A stretch of 64,000 nucleotides of DNA, taken from NCBI GenBank assembly GCA_050739575.1, contig JBOIBN010000002.1, forward strand, positions 2,404 to 66,403. Direction: 5' to 3'. Below are positions 18,919 to 28,730 of the stretch, in pieces (the stretch's first letter is position 1; each line of letters begins with the position of its first letter). The position numbers were made by a program, and so were the translations under genes. Source of the stretch: Gammaproteobacteria bacterium (GTDB lineage Bacteria; Pseudomonadota; Gammaproteobacteria; JAKDMP01). The notes below the pieces were generated by a model. That model ran no database searches, was not told the DNA's origin, and was given only the letters and a program-made list of their open reading frames with translations.

Positions 18919-19095
18919 GCACCTTATTTCATCAGTACAAGCATTTGATTTCGTATAGTTTTTGCGCAGAATAATTCCGGAGCTGATAAAACAGATGCCG
19001 GGCTTGTTGCCACCAGGAACTAAAAGCCGATTTCTTCAGGATTTTCTTCCTATAATGCGCGTTGATAATGATCCTGGAGCCGGCGGGAGGCGGGC

Positions 19096-19950
19096 ATGGC
19101 CTACGATTCGGAGTTCGTCGAATTCTGGAACACCATCCTGGTGCCAAAGTTTTTGCGCTTCCAGGACATTCTCGTACAGGGTCTGGGCAAGCACAGTCGG
19201 GTCATCTTCGCACGTGACGCCGTTGCGAAGCCGGGTGAGCGCGTGCTCGATGTCGGTTGTGGCTTCGGCGATACCGCGATCGATCTCGCGCGTCAGGTGG
19301 GTCCGGCGGGCTGCGTAGTCGGGATCGACTGCTGTCGGGCTTTTCTCGACATTTGTCGAGTCGATGCGGAGCAGGCGGTGCTCGGCAACATCGAGTGGGT
19401 GGAGAGCGACGCGGAAACGCATGAATTCGACGTGCCCTTCGATCTGTGGTTCTCGCGTTTCGGGACAATGTTTTTTTCGCTGCCCGTTGCCGCGCTGCGC
19501 CACCTGCGCACCCAGTTGAAGCCCGGCGGCCGCATGATGATGATCGTATGGCACAAGCGCGATCTCAACCTGTGGGCGGCGCTGCCGCGCGACGTGGTGC
19601 TGCGCTTCCTGCCCGAACCCGAGTCTCCAGATACCTGCGGACCCGGCCCCTTTTCGATGGCGAGCGAGGAAATCGTCACGCAACAGCTGCATGCCGCGGG
19701 CTATACGGACATTGCATTCATGCCGGTGGATGCGCCCATCATGGTCGGGCGCAACCTGGACGACGCGATTGATTTCCAGCTTGCGATCGGCCCGGCAGGA
19801 GAAATCCATCGGGAAGCCGGCAAACTGGCCGAACGCAAGTCGGACGAAATCCGCACGGCGCTCGAACAAGCGTTGGCGCCTTATCTCACGGACGAGGGCG
19901 TCGTGCTGCCATCCACTTCGTGGTGCATCACGGCGCGCAATCCTTCCTGA
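19096..19950 (+). CDS. Class I SAM-dependent methyltransferase
   Basis: VLDVGCGFGDTAIDLA motif I plus ...LKPGGRMMMIVW post-I/II motifs. Confidence 0.8.
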   Translation: MAYDSEFVEFWNTILVPKFLRFQDILVQGLGKHSRVIFARDAVAKPGERVLDVGCGFGDTAIDLARQVGPAGCVVGIDCCRAFLDICRVDAEQAVLGNIEWVESDAETHEFDVPFDLWFSRFGTMFFSLPVAALRHLRTQLKPGGRMMMIVWHKRDLNLWAALPRDVVLRFLPEPESPDTCGPGPFSMASEEIVTQQLHAAGYTDIAFMPVDAPIMVGRNLDDAIDFQLAIGPAGEIHREAGKLAERKSDEIRTALEQALAPYLTDEGVVLPSTSWCITARNPS

Positions 19951-19964
19951 GCACTCACGCGGTG

Positions 19965-20160
19965 CCGTCCAATGGTTCGAGCGGATCGCGTACCTCACGA
20001 TCCAGCTAATTGATGAAGGTGCTCGCGGGCGTCGCGCGCATGCGGCAGGCATCCTCGGAGAAGTCCTGACGGTCGGACGTGCCGAGCAGCCTGATGATGT
20101 AATCTCAATGGGGAAACTGCATGACCGGACTCGCGGCCGAAACCCGCGGTCCGGGCGGAT
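19965..20160 (-). pseudogene. prfC: Decayed internal fragment of prfC (~190 bp, ~80% identical to prfC 11975..12050 and 12130..12235, with an ~85-bp internal deletion)
   Basis: Direct nucleotide comparison: cgagcggatcgcgtacctcacgatccag...gcgcgcatgcggcaggc and ...tcggagaagtcctgacggtcgg...gggaaactgcatgaccggactcgcggccga match the intact prfC. Start and stop are missing and frames are broken. Confidence 0.6.
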
Positions 20161-20221
20161 CCCGGAACCTGCGGAATTTTAACTTGTCTTATCAAATGTA
20201 TACACGTACAAGGAGATTAAC

Positions 20222-20665
20222 ATGAACAAACATATGCTTTTATTCCAGGCTTTGCTGTTGGCCGTTCCTGTCGTTGCCCTGGCGGCTGGTCAGACTGGTG
20301 CACCGCGTATAGTCACAAGTTCGGCGGCTGTCAAAGGAGGTGAGCCAGTCAAGCTTCCCGTACCTGCCTTCAGCAAGGTCGACACCAACAAAGACAATCA
20401 AATCGAATGGAAAGAGGCTCAGGCAGTAGGCGTACCCAAGTCGTTATTCGAACGTTTCGACTATCGTCACGATGGCAAGCTGACGTTAACCGAATGGAAA
20501 ATGGTCGAGGTTGCCATGATTCATACGCAATCGTTGCCCGCGACCAATACATCGTTGCCGCCGGTACCCGCCAGCATTGTAAAAAAGGTCATCCAGAATC
20601 AGCAGGCGCCACACCATGGCACGGCGGCCGGCACTACTGCCGCCCCGCAACCGTCCAGCGGCTGA
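20222..20665 (+). CDS. Secreted EF-hand calcium-binding protein
   Basis: Signal peptide, then two canonical 12-residue EF loops (DTNKDNQIEWKE, DYRHDGKLTLTE). Sits in a local AT-rich patch with an AAGGAG RBS. Confidence 0.6.
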   Translation: MNKHMLLFQALLLAVPVVALAAGQTGAPRIVTSSAAVKGGEPVKLPVPAFSKVDTNKDNQIEWKEAQAVGVPKSLFERFDYRHDGKLTLTEWKMVEVAMIHTQSLPATNTSLPPVPASIVKKVIQNQQAPHHGTAAGTTAAPQPSSG

Positions 20666-20740
20666 TTCCAACAAGATTCGGCCCGCAGGCAGGGCGAGGG
20701 AAGGGTCAGGACCGGGAGTTTCAGCCGAAGGACGGTCTAG

Positions 20741-21553
20741 TCAGTCCTCCGGGACGTAGGTCTTGATTATGTAGCCGCCGGATTTTTCGTCGTACTCCAT
20801 CGTCAGGAGTCCCTTATCCTGCGCTTCTTCCAGCAGCTCGCTAAAGCTGTTGAAACCATGATAGCTTTCGTTGAAACCGGGCTTCCGGCGCTTGATCGCC
20901 TGCTTGACCATCGAGCCCCAGACGCGGTCTTCCACGCCGCGTTCCTTGAACAGATCTTCGATGGTTTCGAGCACCAGATCCAGCGCTTCCTGGCGCTTGT
21001 CGTCCGCACGTTTGGGCGCGGTCACCTTTTCCGCGGCCTTGGTTGCGGATTTGCGTCGGCGCCGGCGAGGCTTCTCATCCTCGCGCACCAGATCGTCATA
21101 GAAGATGAACTCGTCGCAGTTCGCGACCAGCAAGTCCGAACTGGAGTTTTTGACGCCGCTGCCGATAACGAGTTTGTTGTTCTCGCGCAGCTTGCTCACC
21201 AGCGGCGAAAAGTCCGAGTCGCCACTGACGATCACGAAGGTGTCCACGTGTGGCTTGGTGTAACAAAGATCGAGCGCGTCCACGACCATGCGGATGTCGG
21301 CGGAGTTCTTGCCCGACATGCTCACGTGGGGAATCTCGATCAGCTCGAAGGAGGCCTCGTGCATCGCCGGCTTGAACTCCTTGTAGCGCTCCCAGTCGCA
21401 ATACGCTTTCTTGACGACGACGTTGCCCTTGAGCAGCAGGCGCTCCAGAACCTTGCGGATGTCGAAGGCGGAGAACTTGGCGTCGCGCACCCCGAGCGCG
21501 ACGTTCTCGAAGTCGCAGAATACTGCGAGACTGCGGGTAGTGGATTCGATCAT
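20741..21553 (-). CDS. NYN (LabA-like PIN-fold) domain protein with C-terminal OST-HTH/LOTUS domain
   Basis: LAVFCDFENV...VVKKAYCDW...FVIVSGDSDFSPLVSKLRENNKLVIGSG NYN core; C-terminal helical OST-HTH-like region. AGGAG RBS 7 nt upstream. Confidence 0.8.
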   Translation of the reverse strand: MIESTTRSLAVFCDFENVALGVRDAKFSAFDIRKVLERLLLKGNVVVKKAYCDWERYKEFKPAMHEASFELIEIPHVSMSGKNSADIRMVVDALDLCYTKPHVDTFVIVSGDSDFSPLVSKLRENNKLVIGSGVKNSSSDLLVANCDEFIFYDDLVREDEKPRRRRRKSATKAAEKVTAPKRADDKRQEALDLVLETIEDLFKERGVEDRVWGSMVKQAIKRRKPGFNESYHGFNSFSELLEEAQDKGLLTMEYDEKSGGYIIKTYVPED

Positions 21554-21622
21554 ATATGCTCCTGCGCCAAAGCGCGGGTAAGTTGAATAAAGCTTAAATC
21601 AATAACACTTCGATGGTGCGCA

Positions 21623-23944
21623 TCAACGAAATAGGTGGACCTGAACGGCGACAAACGCCTGGCGTATCTCGGGCACCGAGCCGAGCATGCGCTTGGCGTC
21701 GTTGGTGCCGCCATAGCGGATGCGCAGGAAATCGGGGAGTTTGTTCGGCGCCAGTTCGTCGATGCCATGCGTTTGGTAGGCTTCGAGCACATAGTCGAGA
21801 AACGAGCGCATTTCCCTTTCGTAACCGCCAAGGCCGGTGGCTCGGGCCGCTTTGACGCGGTCGGCCCGCGCGAGTGGCGCCAGCTTGAAGCGCACGTAGG
21901 CCAACACGTCGAAGATGTCGCTGTGGGGCGCGTCGATCAGGCGCCGCATGTCTTCCAACCGTTCGGCGTCGTAGCCTATCTCAGCAAGCCGTTGTATGAA
22001 GGCTATGCGGCGCTCGGGGTCGCTCCATACGGCGCGCAGTTCATCCTCGGAGGTCACCAGCGTGCCAAGGTCGCCGAACAGTTGCGCCATGAATTCCTGC
22101 GCAGTAATGAGTTGGCCGTCGTGCGACCAGTAGCTCGTGGCTGCGATATAGCGGATCTGTCGCTCCTTGCCGTCGGCCAGCTTGACGACAATCTTCTCGG
22201 GGAGCGGCGTCTGGTCTTCTTCGATGCCATGCGCTAAACTCGTTGGCTCGGTTGAGGGTTTGCGCGGCCCACGCGACTCATCCGGCGGTAGCGGCTCGCC
22301 ATCCCACTCCGGGTCACTGAAATGCTCGTAGGCGTGCACGAAATCGTAGATGGTGAAGAAGTGCTTGCCGTCAAACACCCGCGTGCCCCGGCCGATGATC
22401 TGCTTGAACTCGATCATGGACTTGATCGGGCGCATCAGCACGATATTGCGGATGTTGAGCGCGTCCACGCCGGTGGACAGCTTTTGCGAGGTGGTGAGGA
22501 TGGTCGGCAGCGTCTTTTCGTTGTCCTGAAACTCGCGCAAGTGCTGTTCGCCCAGCTTGCCGTCATCGGCGGTCACCCGCTCGCAGTAATGCGGGTCCGG
22601 GTTGATCTTGATCTGGTTGATGAAGTTGCGCACTCGCGCTGCATGGTCCTGGGTCGCGCAGAACACCAGCGTTTTCTGGCGCTGATCTATCTGGTCCATG
22701 AACTCCTGCACGCGGCTTTGCTCGCGTTCGTCAATGATGAGCTTGGTGTTGAAGTCGGCCTCGCTGTACTCGCGTTCCGGGTCTATTTCCCCGCTCACGA
22801 CTTCGTCGCCGTCGCTGTATTTGTAGGTATCGAGCGTGCTCGCCATCTGCCGCAGCTTGAACGGCGTCAGGAAGCCGTCGCCGATGCCTTCCTTCAATGC
22901 GTAGGTGTAAACGGGCTCACCGAAATAGGCATAGGTATCGGCGTTGGCGTCGCGCTTGGGCGTAGCGGTCATGCCGAGCTGCACTGCGGGCGAGAAATGT
23001 TCCAGGATGCCGCGCCAGGCGCTTTCGTCCTTCGCGCCGCCGCGGTGGCATTCGTCTATCACGATGAAGTCGAAGAAATCCGGTGGGTAACCTTCGAAGG
23101 TGAACTGCGGTTCTCCGCTTGCATCGGAGCCGGTCATGAAGGTCTGAAAGATGGTGAAGAACACGCTCGCGTTGGTGGGGATGCGGCCCTGCTTGCGAAT
23201 CTCGTCCGGGCTGATGCGGCAAAGCGCATCGCTCGGAAAAGCGCTGAAGGTGTTGTAGGCCTGATCGGCCAGGATGTTGCGGTCGGCCAGAAACAGGATG
23301 CGCGGGCGACGCGTCGGCTGGCGCGACAGGTTCCACTGCGCATGGAACAGCTTCCAGGCAATCTGGAAGGCGATGGAGGTTTTGCCCGTGCCGGTGGCCA
23401 GCGTCAACAGGATGCGGTCTTCGCCCTGGGCGATGGCTTCCAGCACCGCGGTGATCGCGTTGTGTATGTAGTAGCGCGGCTGCCACTTGCCGCCGTCGGT
23501 TTCGAAAGGCACCGCGCCGAATCGGTCGCGCCAGTCGTTGCCTTTTGGAAAGCAGCGGTCCCAAAGCTCTTGCGGCGTAGGGAAGGGCAGGGCATGATCG
23601 CCTTCGACACCGGACTGCATGTCGATGCCATACCAGCGCAGTCCGTTAGTCGAATAAGCGAAGCGAGCTTGCAGGCGGCTGGCGTAGTCCTTGGCTTGGC
23701 CAACACCGTCGGTATAGCCAAGACCCGCGCGCTTGGCTTCGATTACAGCGAGCTTGCGGTCGCGATAACTCAGCACATAGTCTGCCGACAGCGGATTCAC
23801 CCGCCCGCCGCCGGTAATCCGGCCGGGACAGATCATCTCGCGGCGAATCCGCGAGCCTTCCACCACGCCCCAGCCGGCCTCGCGGAGCACGGGGTCTATG
23901 CGGTTGGCACGGGTATCCGCTTCGGTTTCAGTCATCGCCGGCAT
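21623..23944 (-). CDS. hsdR: Type I restriction enzyme R subunit (HsdR, EcoAI/EcoEI-like short form)
   Basis: N-terminal HsdR_N nuclease region (ADYVLSYRDRKLAVIEAKR), SF2 helicase motifs (LATGTGKT, DECHR, MTATPKR, QIIGRGTR), and an EcoEI_R_C-like tail. Start set at MPAMTETEA. Confidence 0.85.
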   Translation of the reverse strand: MPAMTETEADTRANRIDPVLREAGWGVVEGSRIRREMICPGRITGGGRVNPLSADYVLSYRDRKLAVIEAKRAGLGYTDGVGQAKDYASRLQARFAYSTNGLRWYGIDMQSGVEGDHALPFPTPQELWDRCFPKGNDWRDRFGAVPFETDGGKWQPRYYIHNAITAVLEAIAQGEDRILLTLATGTGKTSIAFQIAWKLFHAQWNLSRQPTRRPRILFLADRNILADQAYNTFSAFPSDALCRISPDEIRKQGRIPTNASVFFTIFQTFMTGSDASGEPQFTFEGYPPDFFDFIVIDECHRGGAKDESAWRGILEHFSPAVQLGMTATPKRDANADTYAYFGEPVYTYALKEGIGDGFLTPFKLRQMASTLDTYKYSDGDEVVSGEIDPEREYSEADFNTKLIIDEREQSRVQEFMDQIDQRQKTLVFCATQDHAARVRNFINQIKINPDPHYCERVTADDGKLGEQHLREFQDNEKTLPTILTTSQKLSTGVDALNIRNIVLMRPIKSMIEFKQIIGRGTRVFDGKHFFTIYDFVHAYEHFSDPEWDGEPLPPDESRGPRKPSTEPTSLAHGIEEDQTPLPEKIVVKLADGKERQIRYIAATSYWSHDGQLITAQEFMAQLFGDLGTLVTSEDELRAVWSDPERRIAFIQRLAEIGYDAERLEDMRRLIDAPHSDIFDVLAYVRFKLAPLARADRVKAARATGLGGYEREMRSFLDYVLEAYQTHGIDELAPNKLPDFLRIRYGGTNDAKRMLGSVPEIRQAFVAVQVHLFR

Positions 23945-24389
23945 AACGTGCTGTGGCTTCCTGCACCGTCCCGTGGTGCCAGGGGTTGAGCAGCGCAACG
24001 CCGGTTGCTTCGAAATCGGCCGTATTGCGTGTGACCACGGTCATGCCATGGACCAGCGCGGTTGCGGCAATCAGGGCATCCCGGTCAGGACGTGGGTCGG
24101 GCACGTGCAACCCGGCGCAACGCCGCGCCACGGCCTCGTCCACCGGCAGCACCCGTCCATCGAATTCCGAAACCACCTGCTCGTCCAACCATTGACGTAG
24201 CTGCATCCCTTGCTTGGCATCGCGGCGCTCCATGCGCAGTACGCCAATTTCCAGCTCCATCAAGGTCACTGCCGACATAAAGCAGTTGGCTGTATCCACC
24301 CGGGACTGCCAGGCGGCAACGCGAGGATCCGCCTTCCCATCAGCTACTTTGCGGACTTCGGAAACGACATTGGTGTCCAGCAGATACAT
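23928..24389 (-). CDS. vapC: VapC-family PIN-domain toxin (ribonuclease)
   Basis: MYLLDTNVVSE... N-terminus with the PIN acidic quartet. Stop overlaps the hsdR start by ~17 nt. Confidence 0.8.
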   Translation of the reverse strand: MYLLDTNVVSEVRKVADGKADPRVAAWQSRVDTANCFMSAVTLMELEIGVLRMERRDAKQGMQLRQWLDEQVVSEFDGRVLPVDEAVARRCAGLHVPDPRPDRDALIAATALVHGMTVVTRNTADFEATGVALLNPWHHGTVQEATARYAGDD

Positions 24390-24403
24390 GCATCGCAACC
24401 GGA

Positions 24404-24658
24404 TCAGTCGAAATCGGGGATGCGAAGGTGGATATTCGCCTTTGGCGGATCGAAATCGATGTCTGCCATTCCGGGCATCGCCAGCGCTTCGGCCAGCGTG
24501 CGACGACCGCCGGTCAGGCGCTGGTACTCCGCGATGCTCAGCAGCACATGCGCGGGTTTGCCGCGATCGGTAATGATCACCGGCCCCTGCGCGGCGGCCC
24601 GCTTGGCCCGGCCGATGTCCTGATTCAGCTCCCGGCTGGATACCGTGGTGATGGTCAT
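24404..24658 (-). CDS. Phd/YefM-family antitoxin
   Basis: MTITTVSSRELNQDIGRAKRAAAQGPVIITDRGKPAHVLLSIAEYQRL; located 15 nt upstream of vapC. Confidence 0.75.
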   Translation of the reverse strand: MTITTVSSRELNQDIGRAKRAAAQGPVIITDRGKPAHVLLSIAEYQRLTGGRRTLAEALAMPGMADIDFDPPKANIHLRIPDFD

Positions 24659-24862
24659 GGGAACTTCCACTTGCGATGCAATATAGTTATGTTACTACAT
24701 TCATTTTGGCTGTGCGCCCGATTTGTACCAGTGGTCCGAAAAGGCCGTCTCTGCGGGGCTCGGCGGAGATCGGCTTCGGTTTCTTGTATGCGTCAGGTCA
24801 ACATCCAAGCCGGGTTTACCGTTCGCGAGACTGCCAGTAATCAGTGCGGCGGTGAAGGTGCG

Positions 24863-25078
24863 CTACCGGTACTTGGCAAACACGTCCTCAGCCGGGATAG
24901 ACTCAATTTCTCCTCGCTCATGGGCTTCGACGCGGGCATCTGCCTCTTGTGCCCACGCGGCATCAATTTCGGGGTTGGGAACGTCCAGACTCAGAAGAAT
25001 CTGCTCGGCAACCGCCGCTCGCTCGGATGCCTTGAGTTTTAGTGCCTGATTGATTACGGATGCGGTTGAGTCAGACAT
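24863..25078 (-). CDS. Putative addiction-module antitoxin component (Unstab_antitox-like), apparently orphan
   Basis: MSDSTASVINQALKLKASERAAVAEQILLSLDVPNPEIDAAWAQEADARVEAHERGEIESIPAEDVFAKYR. The ~190 bp downstream lacks an intact RelE/ParE-type partner. Confidence 0.55.
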   Translation of the reverse strand: MSDSTASVINQALKLKASERAAVAEQILLSLDVPNPEIDAAWAQEADARVEAHERGEIESIPAEDVFAKYR

Positions 25079-25151
25079 GAATATCACCTATATATCCAAC
25101 TATCAAGATCATAGCACGGTGGCCGCGGGGCGAACTCGGATTCCGTGCCAC

Positions 25152-26531
25152 TCAGGTCAGCTCACCGGCGAAGGCTTTTTGCAGGATGGATTGACGGAGG
25201 TCGGCGATGTCCGAGAGTTTCGTTTGATACCGGCTTTCTAGGTGACTTGATTCATTCCCAATCGCACTCAGTGTATTGCAAATCTCTTTTTGTCGATCCC
25301 GCGAAGGATGGCAGATATGGAATGCCTTTACCTCCGGGAAGTAAATAGTTTGATGCACCGAACCGCTTGCAAATTCGCGGATTTTATCCCCTTGGGCGAG
25401 CAAAAGAAACTTCAGAAAATCGGGTTCTAGATGATCACCGCATATCCAATTCACGAAATCCTGACTTGTTGCCATGTCGCGGCCCATTACTACGACATAA
25501 CCTACCGAGGCAGTGCGAGAAAGGCAGACGGTTCCCTTCGGCAGGATGCGAGCGCTGGAATTAGCGATACCTCGCTGATTCGTCTGCTCTCGGGTCGAGA
25601 AAATTTTGCCCCCATGATGATCGCCTGCATCGCGTATCCCGATCCATCCAATGTCGCCGCCCCAATATTCCGGATGCTTTCTGCTAGGAGTGTGTCCACT
25701 TTCAAGCCGTGCCATATCAGATAATGGCGACCAGACCCAGCCTGGCCGCGCCTCGACGTGTGGGCGGAGAACAGACAAGGAATAATTGCCTTCAATCGGA
25801 CGAGTTGTTGCGCCGCGTCCACCGGTTTGTGTTTGCGCTTTGGATCGCTTTGACTGGGCACGTTTTGTGGTGATCAACTGTACAAGAGGCGCTGTATCAG
25901 AAAGCCATTTACGAGAGTCGTTTGAGAAAACGTCACGAAGTGCGCTCAGAAAGAACCCCTGCGCGTCCGCCAGATTGGCCTCGGCATCGGCGCGGGCGCG
26001 GTCGAGGGCGGCGAAGATCTGATCGAGCACCGCAACAATCCGCTTTTGCTCCTCCAGTGGGGGGAGCGGGATGAATATGTTGCCAATGATTACCAAGGTC
26101 AGCGACGGATATTTGTGGTCTTGGATCAGGTCCTGCGCCTTTACAGTAGACAGGTAATAAAGCAGGTAGCGCGGTTCGGCCACATCTTGTCGCGCTGTTA
26201 TCGTAGCGAGATGACTTGAGACATATCCATCAACGGACATCTCGACTCGATGGTTGAGAAAAGTGGAAGCTCCGCTCTTCGGCATCAAGACAGTTCCGGC
26301 GGGGACCAGTCGGAGCTTGGAAATTCCATCGTCGTTGAGAAGATCGGAGGCTCCATCGATATTGCCGAACCTGACTCGACCAACGTCCGACGTGCGAATA
26401 AAAGGATATATACCGTTCTCGAAGAGCTCTTTTTTCTGAGGAGCTGAATTTCCTGCCCCAATATGCGCGGCATCTTTCAGCAAAACGGACTTCCATTCCC
26501 GTTGACTAGCGATGGCAGCGGTGCTGTTCAC
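25152..26531 (-). CDS. hsdS: Type I restriction-modification specificity subunit HsdS (two target-recognition domains)
   Basis: 459 aa with two TRDs separated by a central conserved helix. Strongly AT-shifted DNA relative to its surroundings. GTG start overlaps the hsdM stop (GTGA). Confidence 0.85.
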   Translation of the reverse strand: MNSTAAIASQREWKSVLLKDAAHIGAGNSAPQKKELFENGIYPFIRTSDVGRVRFGNIDGASDLLNDDGISKLRLVPAGTVLMPKSGASTFLNHRVEMSVDGYVSSHLATITARQDVAEPRYLLYYLSTVKAQDLIQDHKYPSLTLVIIGNIFIPLPPLEEQKRIVAVLDQIFAALDRARADAEANLADAQGFFLSALRDVFSNDSRKWLSDTAPLVQLITTKRAQSKRSKAQTQTGGRGATTRPIEGNYSLSVLRPHVEARPGWVWSPLSDMARLESGHTPSRKHPEYWGGDIGWIGIRDAGDHHGGKIFSTREQTNQRGIANSSARILPKGTVCLSRTASVGYVVVMGRDMATSQDFVNWICGDHLEPDFLKFLLLAQGDKIREFASGSVHQTIYFPEVKAFHICHPSRDRQKEICNTLSAIGNESSHLESRYQTKLSDIADLRQSILQKAFAGELT

Positions 26532-27888
26532 AACATATCCCGAATACCCTTAAGAATCTTCGCCGTCTCGGCATCGCGCGCCAGCATGTCCTTGATGATC
26601 TGCTCCGGTTCACGCGACGGCGTTGCCTCGGGGGCGTTGGGGTTTTTGACCGACAGGTTCCACGTCGTCTTGTCGATGTCGGCGGCCTGCACGGTCCAGC
26701 TTTGCGGGCTGTCGGCTTTCTTTGGTTGCAGCTTCACGAACTCGGCCAGGTCGTTGTCGTTGAGCGGGTTGGTTTTGCCCAGGCTGCGACCCGGATCGAG
26801 CTGGTAGTACCAGATCTTGCGCGTCTTCGATCCTTTCTCGAAGAACAGCACCACGGTCTTGACGCCCGCGCCCTGGAAGGTGCCGCCGGGGCAGTCGAGT
26901 ACGGTGTGCAGCTTGCAGGTGGTGAGCAGTTCCTTGCGCAGGGCGACGCTGGCGTTGTCGGTGTTGCTGAGGAAGGTGTTCTTGATGACCACGGCGCCAC
27001 GCCCGCCGGCCCTGAGCTTGCGCATGAAGTGCTGCAGAAACAGGTAGGCCGTCTCGCCGGACTTGATGGGGAAGTTGTGCTGCACCTCCTTGCGTTCGCC
27101 GCCGCCGAAGGGCGGATTGGCGAGAACAATGTCGTGGCGGCCGCGCTCGGCGATGTCTATGACGTTTTCGGTGAGCGTGTTGGTGTGGCGGATGGACGGC
27201 GCGTCGATGCCGTGCAGCACCATGTTCATCACGCCGATGACGTAAGCCAGGGATTTCTTTTCCTGGCCGTAGAAGGTGCGGCGCTGTAGCTGTTTCCACT
27301 GCGAGGCGGAAAGATCGCCGCGGCGCAGATATTCCCAGGCCTCGCAGAGAAACCCGGCGGAGCCGCAGGCGCCGTCGTAGATGGTCTCGCCGATTTGCGG
27401 GGCCGTGACTTTGACCATGGCGCGGATCAGCGGGCGCGGCGTGTAGTACTCGCCGCCATTGCGCCCGGCGTTGCCCATGCGCTTAATGCGGGTTTCGTAC
27501 AGGTCTGATTGATGACTTCGGAGAAGATTTCGCCGATCTTGTATTCGAGCGTATCCGCGTGCTCGGCGCTTTCGTGGAACTTCTTCAGGTAGGGGAACAG
27601 TTTGCCGTTGATGAACTCGATCAGATCTTCACCGGTCAGCGCGGCGTGGTGATCGAATTCGCCGTCCTTTTTGGGCGCTGCCCAGGTATGCCAGCGGTAG
27701 GGTATGTCGAGGATCGGCGTGTACTCGCGGCTTTCCAGTTGGGCGTTGTCCTCGCGCTCGGTTTCCAGATCGTCCAGGTACTTCAGAAACAGCAGCCACG
27801 AGGTCTGCTCAGCGTAATCGAGTTCCGAGGCGAGCCCCTCGTCGTTACGCATGACCTTGTCGATATTATTGAACGCGTTTTCAAACAT
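26528..27888 (-). pseudogene. hsdM: Type I RM N6-adenine methyltransferase HsdM, interrupted by a frameshift near 27430..27480
   Basis: ORF 27427..27888 is the HsdM_N domain (…IGEIFSEVINQT…). ORF 26528..27478 is the catalytic half (GGEYYTPRPLIRAMV, DGACGSAGFL, NPPFG). Both are needed for one protein but lie in different frames with a 52-nt overlap. Confidence 0.75.
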
Positions 27889-27971: not shown

Positions 27972-28006
27972 CCCATAAAGCGGCCCCGGCTTGAAACCGG
28001 GGCCGC
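27972..28006 (-). terminator. Rho-independent terminator of ssrA
   Basis: On the minus strand, GCGGCCCCGG-TTTCAAG-CCGGGGCCGC followed by TTTAT, immediately 3' of the tmRNA CCA end. Confidence 0.65.
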
Positions 28007-28010
28007 TGGT

Positions 28011-28631
28011 TGGTGGAGGCGGGGGGACAGCTGGTTCCATATCTTTCGATATGGGCCGGACTATTCCTTCACCTGTCGTGTCCCGACAGGGGAGGGCGTT
28101 TGTGGGCCTGCAGCCCACCCTAGTACTCCATGGAGCGTTGCTCTTCAGGAGCCTATGAGTCTCTAGCCGGCTTACTGGTTTCCCATTCACCGGACGGCGT
28201 TGGCATAGAACCCTTGCTCCTTAGCGTTCACCGTATGAGCCCTCTTTTCCAACGGGGATCGCTCCCCGTGGCGACCGTCTTCCAATCGAACCCCCGTCCG
28301 CGAGCCCTCCGCCGTCGGCTCTACATGCTTATCCCGGTCTATTTATCTTGTCGCGTGCTACCCGACGGGCAGGGAAAACACGTGACCAGTCCGACTTGGT
28401 TTTAGCGGCAGTAGTCCGGACCCCTGCCACCGCGATTCTGCGAGATGCGACCCCTGAGACGGACCCGAAGATCCTCCGGACGCGCAGACGCGGCTCCGGT
28501 CAAGGGCTGGCGGGGCTTAAGCCGCCAGTGCGTAGCTGTTGTTGTTCGCAGCTATTGCGTTTGCAGTCTGATTTACGAGGGGACTGCACCTCGGCATGCA
28601 CCTCGGGTTTCGCGACCCACGTCGAAACCTG
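28011..28631 (-). ncRNA. ssrA: tmRNA (ssrA), interrupted by an intron in the T-loop; mature length ~374 nt
   Basis: 5' end GGGGGCGACCAGGUUUCGACGUGGGUCGCGAAACCCGAGGUGCAUGCCGAGG... Tag reading frame ...GCAAACGCA...AACAACAACAGCUACGCACUGGCGGCUUAA (…NNNSYALAA*). T-arm GGACGGGGGUUCGAU | insertion | UCCCCCCGCCUCCACCA; the acceptor stem pairs with the 5' end. Confidence 0.85.
28028..28274 (-). other. Putative group I intron (IC3-like, ~247 nt) inside the ssrA T-loop
   Basis: The insert starts UGGAAGACGG and ends ...ACCAGCUG (omega G). The 5' exon ends in U. It contains UAUGCCAACGCCG (cf. the Azoarcus tRNA-Ile intron UAUGGCAACGCCG), GCUAGAGACUCA (R-like) and GAAGGAAUAGUCC (S-like) in canonical order. 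No ORF. Confidence 0.65.
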
Positions 28632-28644
28632 GTCGCCCCCATGG

Positions 28645-28673
28645 TCCTTTGTCATTATGCGGGCGCGGGCTGG
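28645..28673 (-). promoter_or_regulatory. Sigma70-type promoter of ssrA (TTGATA-17-CATAAT, +1 ~11 nt downstream)
   Basis: Minus strand: TTGATAagtccagcccgcgcccgCATAATgacaaaggaccatgGGGGCGACC. Confidence 0.5.
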
Positions 28674-28730
28674 ACTTATCAAGCCGCGGGAGCGCCGGCG
28701 AGGTCTGCACGATGAAGAATGGCCGGGCGT

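Follow-up and report, generated by a model that had tools for sequence, protein, structure and literature searches.

The intron form of ssrA, the tmRNA gene, has been known since 2002. A tmRNA database published in 2025 holds 883 unique intron-form tmRNAs from 21 phyla, all of them interrupted in the T-loop and most at its position 7; Pseudomonadota contribute 159 instances at T-loop position 7, the introns are described with a 'P7.1 region', and the published criteria for the form are 150 bits or more with the tmRNA_intron covariance model and a length of at least 500 nt (PMC11915505). Among the complete genomes surveyed in 2026, tmRNA introns were nearly confined to Bacillota (PMC13011429), so that proteobacterial cases, although documented, are infrequent, at about 0.1% of genomes. 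The tmRNA intron of Clostridium botulinum is cited in one study as having earlier been shown to self-splice, and the construct described there comprises a 287-nt intron with a 5' exon of 338 nt and a 3' exon of 24 nt (PMC2729099). Many bacterial introns of tRNA and tmRNA genes reportedly escape the Rfam model RF00028, Intron_gpI (bioRxiv 10.1101/2020.01.27.920355; PMC13011429).

Here we describe an ssrA gene on a contig from a gammaproteobacterial metagenome-assembled genome (MAG); the whole stretch of DNA analysed, 64 kb long, is called the window throughout. It is very probable that the gene belongs to the intron form, with a 257-nt, ORF-less group I intron at T-loop position 7 of a gammaproteobacterial tmRNA, an intron whose removal by splicing we infer from its structure. 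No categorical difference separates the locus from the catalogued intron-form tmRNAs: host gene, insertion point between T-loop bases 6 and 7, the rule of a U at -1 with a terminal omega G, and the P7.1 region are all alike, most catalogued examples also have no homing endonuclease gene, and the phylum Pseudomonadota is already represented, although most published examples come from Bacillota and this copy from a gammaproteobacterial MAG. The C. botulinum intron resembles it, by description rather than by sequence, in being a group I intron of similar size in the tmRNA T-loop without an ORF, but differs in host phylum and base composition. Hundreds of bacteria are already on record with this arrangement, to which the window ssrA adds one more. 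A first-pass annotation of this DNA had called such introns extremely rare, and their occurrence in a proteobacterium notable; set against the catalogue just cited, that view is outdated and the claim to novelty fails.

The tmRNA gene and its two exons

The ssrA gene occupies 28011..28640 on the minus strand, and its unspliced length of 630 nt lies above the 500-nt minimum of the intron form. The Rfam tmRNA model RF00023 matches 28632..28283(-) with 154.6 bits and stops within the T-loop at ...GGGGGUUCGAUU; its alignment is normal over the tag region and the pseudoknots, ends in the T-loop at ...GGACGGGGGUUCGAUU, and leaves the last ~15 model positions unmatched. The 5' exon (28285..28640(-)), delimited by RF00023 and by ARAGORN on the spliced sequence, comprises the acceptor 5' strand GGGGGCG, the tag region, the pseudoknots, the T-stem 5' strand and the first six T-loop bases, UUCGAU. 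Within it the tag reading frame (28517..28549(-), tmRNA positions 92-124) reads GCG AAC AAC AAC AGC UAC GCA CUG GCG GCU UAA, encoding ANNNSYALAA*. The 17-nt 3' exon, UCCCCCCGCCUCCACCA (28027..28011(-)), reads U-CCCCC-CGCCUCC-A-CCA and supplies the base that completes the T-loop, the 3' strands of T-stem and acceptor stem, the discriminator A and an encoded CCA; its CGCCUCC complements the GGGGGCG of the 5' end, with the G3.U70 pair present. The parts by which a tmRNA is recognised were thus all found, namely a tRNA-like domain (G3.U70 acceptor stem, T-arm and CCA) and a tag frame with a resume codon and a stop.

ARAGORN reported no tmRNA in the unspliced DNA or in the whole window. When 28285 was joined to 28027 in silico, the resulting 373-nt tmRNA was accepted by the same program with the tag ANNNSYALAA*. 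Only one pair of boundaries restores a seven-base T-loop, that with U28285 before the 5' splice site and G28028 at the 3' end of the intron. The intron accordingly spans 28028..28284(-), starts UGGAAG, ends CAGCUG with G28028 as omega G, and interrupts the T-loop between bases 6 and 7 (UUCGAU, intron, U-CCCCC), which is T-loop position 7 in the nomenclature of Williams. ORFs overlapping it gave no Pfam match, hence no LAGLIDADG, GIY-YIG or HNH endonuclease ORF, and at 257 nt the intron is too short for a homing endonuclease gene. Since such a gene is absent, the window intron has probably been inherited vertically or moves only rarely.

Upstream lies a sigma70-like promoter, TTGATA-17-CATAAT (28654..28682(-)), which agrees with the consensus at 10 of 12 positions (one site found against 0.4 expected); its -10 element ends 14 nt before G28640, the 5' nucleotide of the mature tmRNA. 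Downstream of the CCA (27975..28006(-)), a terminator-like 10-bp GC hairpin, GCGGCCCCGG-UUUCAAG-CCGGGGCCGC (28006..27980), followed by UUUAU, can be read from the sequence; the terminator scan did not call it, because its U tract is short.

Much of the first-pass description of the gene holds. It had recognised an ssrA with the expected parts, which RF00023, the 3' piece at 28027..28011(-) and ARAGORN after splicing bear out; a tag ending ...YALAA*, now complete; a 5' exon ending in U and an insert ending in G, as at U28285 and G28028; and an insert without an ORF, in keeping with the Pfam result. Its promoter stands, whereas its intrinsic terminator does not in that form. Two lengths needed correction: the insert, given as 247 nt, measures 257 nt (28284..28028), and the spliced tmRNA, given as 374 nt, is reconstructed at 373 nt.

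Covariation and the fold of the intron

The window intron was aligned with 101 distinct homologues among the matches listed in a metagenome scan (see below), retaining 10 nt of exon on the 5' side and 6 nt on the 3' side, using MAFFT (497 columns). Without guidance, RNAalifold recovered the T-stem, P1, P2, P3, P4, P5 (base), P6, P7.1, P7.2, P8 and P9. P7 was added by hand as a pseudoknot before pairs were counted, and the controls were folds in which partners were slid by 1-3 columns, and 500 shuffles. The proposed fold has standard pairs in 98.8% of cells (slid controls, 35-43%), pairs changed on both sides at 38 of 65 positions (slid controls, 15-21) and a covariation score of 0.48 (slid controls, 0.04-0.11); none of the 500 shuffles matched the observed pair-count values. 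The covariation-supported fold is beyond chance. The core helices P3, P4, P5, P6 and P8 all covary, by which the group I core is found comparatively, and the T-stem pairs covary across the intron, 68 of the 102 sequences having CG and 34 having GC. The single-sequence minimum free energy (MFE) fold of the window intron reproduces most helices (z = -3.7).

In the predicted structure, P1 (28272..28288(-)) joins exon CGAU and intron U1 to the internal guide GGUCG (28276..28272), with a splice-site wobble U28285.G28275 that is kept in 102/102 aligned sequences. The P2 hairpin ACGGGGA-GCGA-UCCCCGU (28252..28269(-)), closed by a GNRA loop, has compensatory changes at 7/7 pairs. P3 pairs GAGGGC (28239..28244(-)) with GCCCUC (28092..28097(-)), compensatory at 3/6 pairs and paired in 100% of cells. 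Three approaches, the alignment fold, the MFE fold and the RF00028 alignment, give the P4-P5-P6 domain (28167..28234(-)): P4 joins 28234-28229 to 28199-28194, P5 joins 28225-28224 to 28204-28203 and continues in a distal GAGC/GUUC stem, and P6 joins 28193-28189 to 28171-28167 (compensatory at 4/5 pairs) and carries P6a, UGG-GAAA-CCA, all on the minus strand.

The R element CUAGAGACUCA (28156..28165(-)) would provide the 5' strand of P7, from G28161 A C U28158 with A28156, leaving C28157 bulged; it is invariant in 102/102 sequences, paired and without covariation. Its partner lies in J8/7 and the S element, GUGAAGGAAUAGUCC (28057..28071(-)), where U28063..C28059 form the P7 3' strand. The P7 pairing GACU(C)A/UAGUC is possible in 102/102 sequences, with all positions invariant and hence no covariation, and a rival ACUA that follows P7.1 could pair with S. 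Between P7 and P3' stand a P7.1-type hairpin (28121..28155(-); compensatory at 4/7 pairs, 100% of cells paired) and a P7.2-type hairpin, GUGGGC-UGCAG-GCCCAC (28102..28118(-); 7/7 pairs). P8, CCUGUCG-GGACA-CGACAGG (28072..28090(-)), is compensatory at 3/4 base pairs and also appears in the MFE fold, and P9, CCAUAUC-GAAA-GAUAUGG (28037..28054(-)), at 5/7 pairs; 101 of the 102 P9 loops read GAAA, and that of L226 reads GUAA.

Three further sequence features of this region were observed. A duplicated-looking R element flanks P7.1 (28121-28165(-)), with AGAGACUCAUAGG before it and GGAGUACUAGGG after it, both invariant in the family; the second copy, which follows P7.1 and includes an ACUAGG motif, offers an ACUA that might take the place of the first in pairing with S, and because both copies are invariant, covariation is silent on which of them forms P7. 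The 8-mer GAGGGCUC occurs on the minus strand both in the tmRNA 5' exon (28302-28318) and as the P3 5' strand of the intron (28237-28244). Finally, a 15-nt exon stretch is 87% complementary to the P3'/P8 region of the intron (28083-28097, minus strand). Such an alternative exon-intron pairing could compete with P3, or the complementarity could be due to chance.

Two hallmarks of group I introns were found, a U at -1 in a U.G wobble with the internal guide and a terminal omega G (G28028). Applied to the intron alone, RF00028 aligned end to end over 28280..28037(-) with 25.3 bits (E=1.2e-4), below its 50-bit gathering score; it gave no match at the gathering threshold, none at E<=10 on 751 nt and none over the whole window. 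Relatives of the window intron score 27-30 bits, and a weak score is to be expected, because the model is reported to miss such bacterial introns. Taken with the helices above, this indicates that the insert is a group I intron with P1 to P9, including the P3/P7 pseudoknot. The first-pass annotation is upheld in this identification, on the strength of the rebuilt exons, the U-1.G pair with its terminal G, the covarying helices among P1-P9 and the sub-threshold match, and in pairings it proposed to look for, P1 with exon UUCGAU, P3-P6 and P9; its P7 can pair in every sequence but is invariant and shows no covariation. The Rfam models it named agree in part, RF00023 with a clear match of 154.6 bits and RF00028 below threshold on the intron alone and silent in the larger searches. 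Its R-like AGAGACU and S-like AUAGUCC are both present in the order claimed, but the motif UAUGCCAACGCCG, which it had placed in J6/7-P7, is in fact the 3' side of P5, J5/4 and the 3' strand of P4, both in the covariation-supported fold and in the RF00028 alignment.

The steps expected of such an intron follow established group I intron chemistry. Transcription from the sigma70-type promoter would give a precursor of ~630 nt, in which the intron would fold into a group I core of P1-P2, P3-P8, the P4-P6 domain, P7 with its G-binding G-C pair, P7.1/P7.2 and P9. Exogenous guanosine bound at the P7 G-C pair would attack the phosphate after U28285, which forms the U.G wobble with G28275 of the guide GGUCG, and the freed 3'-OH of the 5' exon would then attack after the terminal G28028. 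Ligation of the exons would yield the T-arm GGGGG-UUCGAUU-CCCCC and a 373-nt tmRNA with its G3.U70 acceptor stem, encoded CCA and tag ANNNSYALAA, after which normal tmRNA maturation, alanylation and SmpB binding would follow. The gene is presumably functional after splicing; for this copy we infer splicing, which may be autocatalytic.

Of the other readings, the one that survives best supposes that the intron is a decayed, splicing-dead relic and this ssrA copy a pseudogene, with rescue left to another ssrA or to ArfA/ArfB-type systems. It could appeal to the RF00028 score under the gathering threshold, to the frameshifted hsdM that adjoins ssrA and to the fact that the view covers one 64-kb window of the genome. 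We nevertheless consider it very unlikely, for the sequence bears no sign of decay: in the window copy 65/65 consensus pairs are standard and all family-invariant bases are retained, the exons rebuild a complete tmRNA with tag frame, acceptor stem and CCA intact, the promoter is present, and no second tmRNA was found in the 64-kb window by ARAGORN or RF00023. Still less credible is the view that a transposable element (of the IS, MITE or IStron-like kind) or some other non-intron DNA has disrupted the T-loop, a view to which the discreteness of the 257-nt insertion and the standing of ssrA as a hotspot of mobile DNA might lend some colour. The first-pass annotation had named an IS or MITE as the alternative, but the terminal inverted repeats and flanking direct repeats sought at 28028/28284 were not found, target duplication is nil beyond an ambiguous single U, transposase and TnpB ORFs are absent, and the insert has a group I fold supported by covariation.

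Relatives of the intron and its subgroup

Metagenomes were scanned with an intron-internal pattern, CAACGCCG-N15-45-TAGAGACTCATAG, which matched at least 120 loci. Among the 121 pattern matches listed, 104 had the layout ...GGGTTCGAT, intron, TCCC...CCA, with the two halves of the T-arm and a U at -1. The intron ended in ...CUG at 90 of the 97 loci delimited in a first pass among the matches listed, where the terminal G is no independent count, as the delimiting script demanded a G before the 3' exon. Most introns among the matches listed measured ~250-340 nt; a single one had 204 nt, the two longest reached 350 and 413 nt, and RF00023 hits ended at the T-loop in 20/20 loci tested among them. 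That the window locus is a metagenome assembly chimera, a tmRNA fragment joined to an unrelated group I intron, has almost nothing to recommend it: the source is a MAG, and a second assembly with the same proteins has a contig ending just before ssrA, but over 100 independent contigs, drawn from many samples, repeat the same exon-intron-exon layout and the T-stem bases covary across the intron.

Genomes were scanned with the 15-mer S element GTGAAGGNATAGTCC, which proved too unspecific, with several thousand chance matches estimated. The only tmRNA intron it returned was that of L117, a gammaproteobacterial MAG with the same exon-intron-exon layout and an intron of ~350 nt; seven other loci turned out to be genuine group I introns of the tRNA type. 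Family variants (L154:1196-1624, L117:4907-5272, L173, L220, L225 and L234; L130, L141 and others) were observed to differ by large insertions, located in P5, P7.2 and P8, and their introns reach 413 nt. In many family members P1 is minimal, its loop being 3 nt long (CGAUC-GAG-GGUCG), and there is no space for a conventional P10.

The window intron is 85-94% identical to its closest relatives among the matches listed (L200, L197 and L224), while the adjoining 356-nt exon is 78-82% identical; the most similar exons among the matches listed (L191 and L208; 81-83%) bear another intron sub-type. The greater conservation of the intron may reflect strong constraint or some horizontal spread or intron transfer, and it is because the intron is closer to these relatives than the exon is that there is room for horizontal spread.

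The seven RF00028-certified tRNA introns, which score 52-72 bits, lie in the anticodon loops of tRNA genes. With the window intron they share the U at -1 and the omega G, a P2 hairpin whose loop is GNRA in the window intron and GAAA in the three tRNA introns that were aligned, the motif GCCAA 3' in the P4-P5 domain, a related R element that contains AGAGACU, and the S element GGUGAAGGNAUAGUCC, which is identical. A P9 hairpin is also shared; the two cyanobacterial introns close it with a GAAA loop, while in L097 it is not apparent. In the tRNA introns, however, P7 runs directly into P3', whereas the tmRNA intron of the window, with its 25 bits, has two extra covarying hairpins there.

Hairpins of the P7.1/P7.2 kind between P7 and P3' are typical of subgroup IA; IC3 introns are said, after Michel and Westhof in 1990, to have no extra helices at this place, and the clostridial tmRNA intron was reportedly assigned to IA3 by Williams in 2002. 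The IA-type trait is present in the window intron as the two covarying hairpins, P7.1 and P7.2. These same hairpins led us to reject the IC3 label and contradict the IC3 kinship proposed in the first-pass annotation; judged by helix layout, the intron is of IA type and not IC3. The core motifs of the GC-rich clade of introns to which it belongs resemble those of tRNA-type IC3 introns, yet P7.1/P7.2 are present, and the RF00028 gathering threshold misses the clade. The clade is abundant in metagenomes, where it yielded at least 120 contigs. A more speculative proposal, which we think rather unlikely, is that this clade is a lineage separate from the classic tmRNA introns of Bacillota, one that could stem from an independent invasion of the same T-loop site and could be much commoner in uncultured bacteria than complete-genome surveys suggest.

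Genomic setting and significance

Directly downstream of ssrA (19036-27888(-)) lie hsdM, hsdS (25152-26531) and hsdR (21623-23998), followed by an NYN-domain protein (20741-21553), a 338-aa ORF without a Pfam match and then housekeeping RND efflux genes. The hsd block looks island-like. A genomic-island att duplication was considered and rejected: no second copy of the tmRNA 3' end was found in the window, and no integrase was found among the Pfam-scanned ORFs at 9.6-27.9 kb, downstream of ssrA. The gene for the type I restriction-modification methylase, hsdM (26528-27888(-)), is divided between two ORFs that overlap in different reading frames, an HsdM_N fragment of 153 aa (27427-27888) and an N6_Mtase fragment of 316 aa (26528-27478), and is either a frameshift pseudogene or the product of a sequence error in the MAG. 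Local sequence errors are possible, since the source is a MAG and the adjoining hsdM is frameshifted.

Proteins neighbouring ssrA stand alone or nearly so in 90%-identity clusters. Identical GlnD, DapD and DapE are encoded on a 6.7-kb contig of another assembly (L121; GCA_974167825.1, contig CDBNZP010000056.1), which stops inside bfr, a few hundred bases before ssrA. A t44 RNA (RF00127; 36786-36912(+), 68 bits) contains an insertion of 38 nt at a point for which the model allows 6 nt; its position beside glnD and the dap genes fits the leader region of a gammaproteobacterial rpsB.

The window tmRNA intron opens no new question, and its value lies in annotation. ARAGORN reports no tmRNA, the Rfam tmRNA match is cut off in the T-loop and RF00028 is silent at threshold; because all three fall short, a pipeline would call ssrA broken or missing in this MAG. 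Recognition of the intron form restores an essential ribosome-rescue gene, and adds a gammaproteobacterial example, with an alignment of ~100 environmental relatives, to a known, though unevenly sampled, class of bacterial ribozymes.
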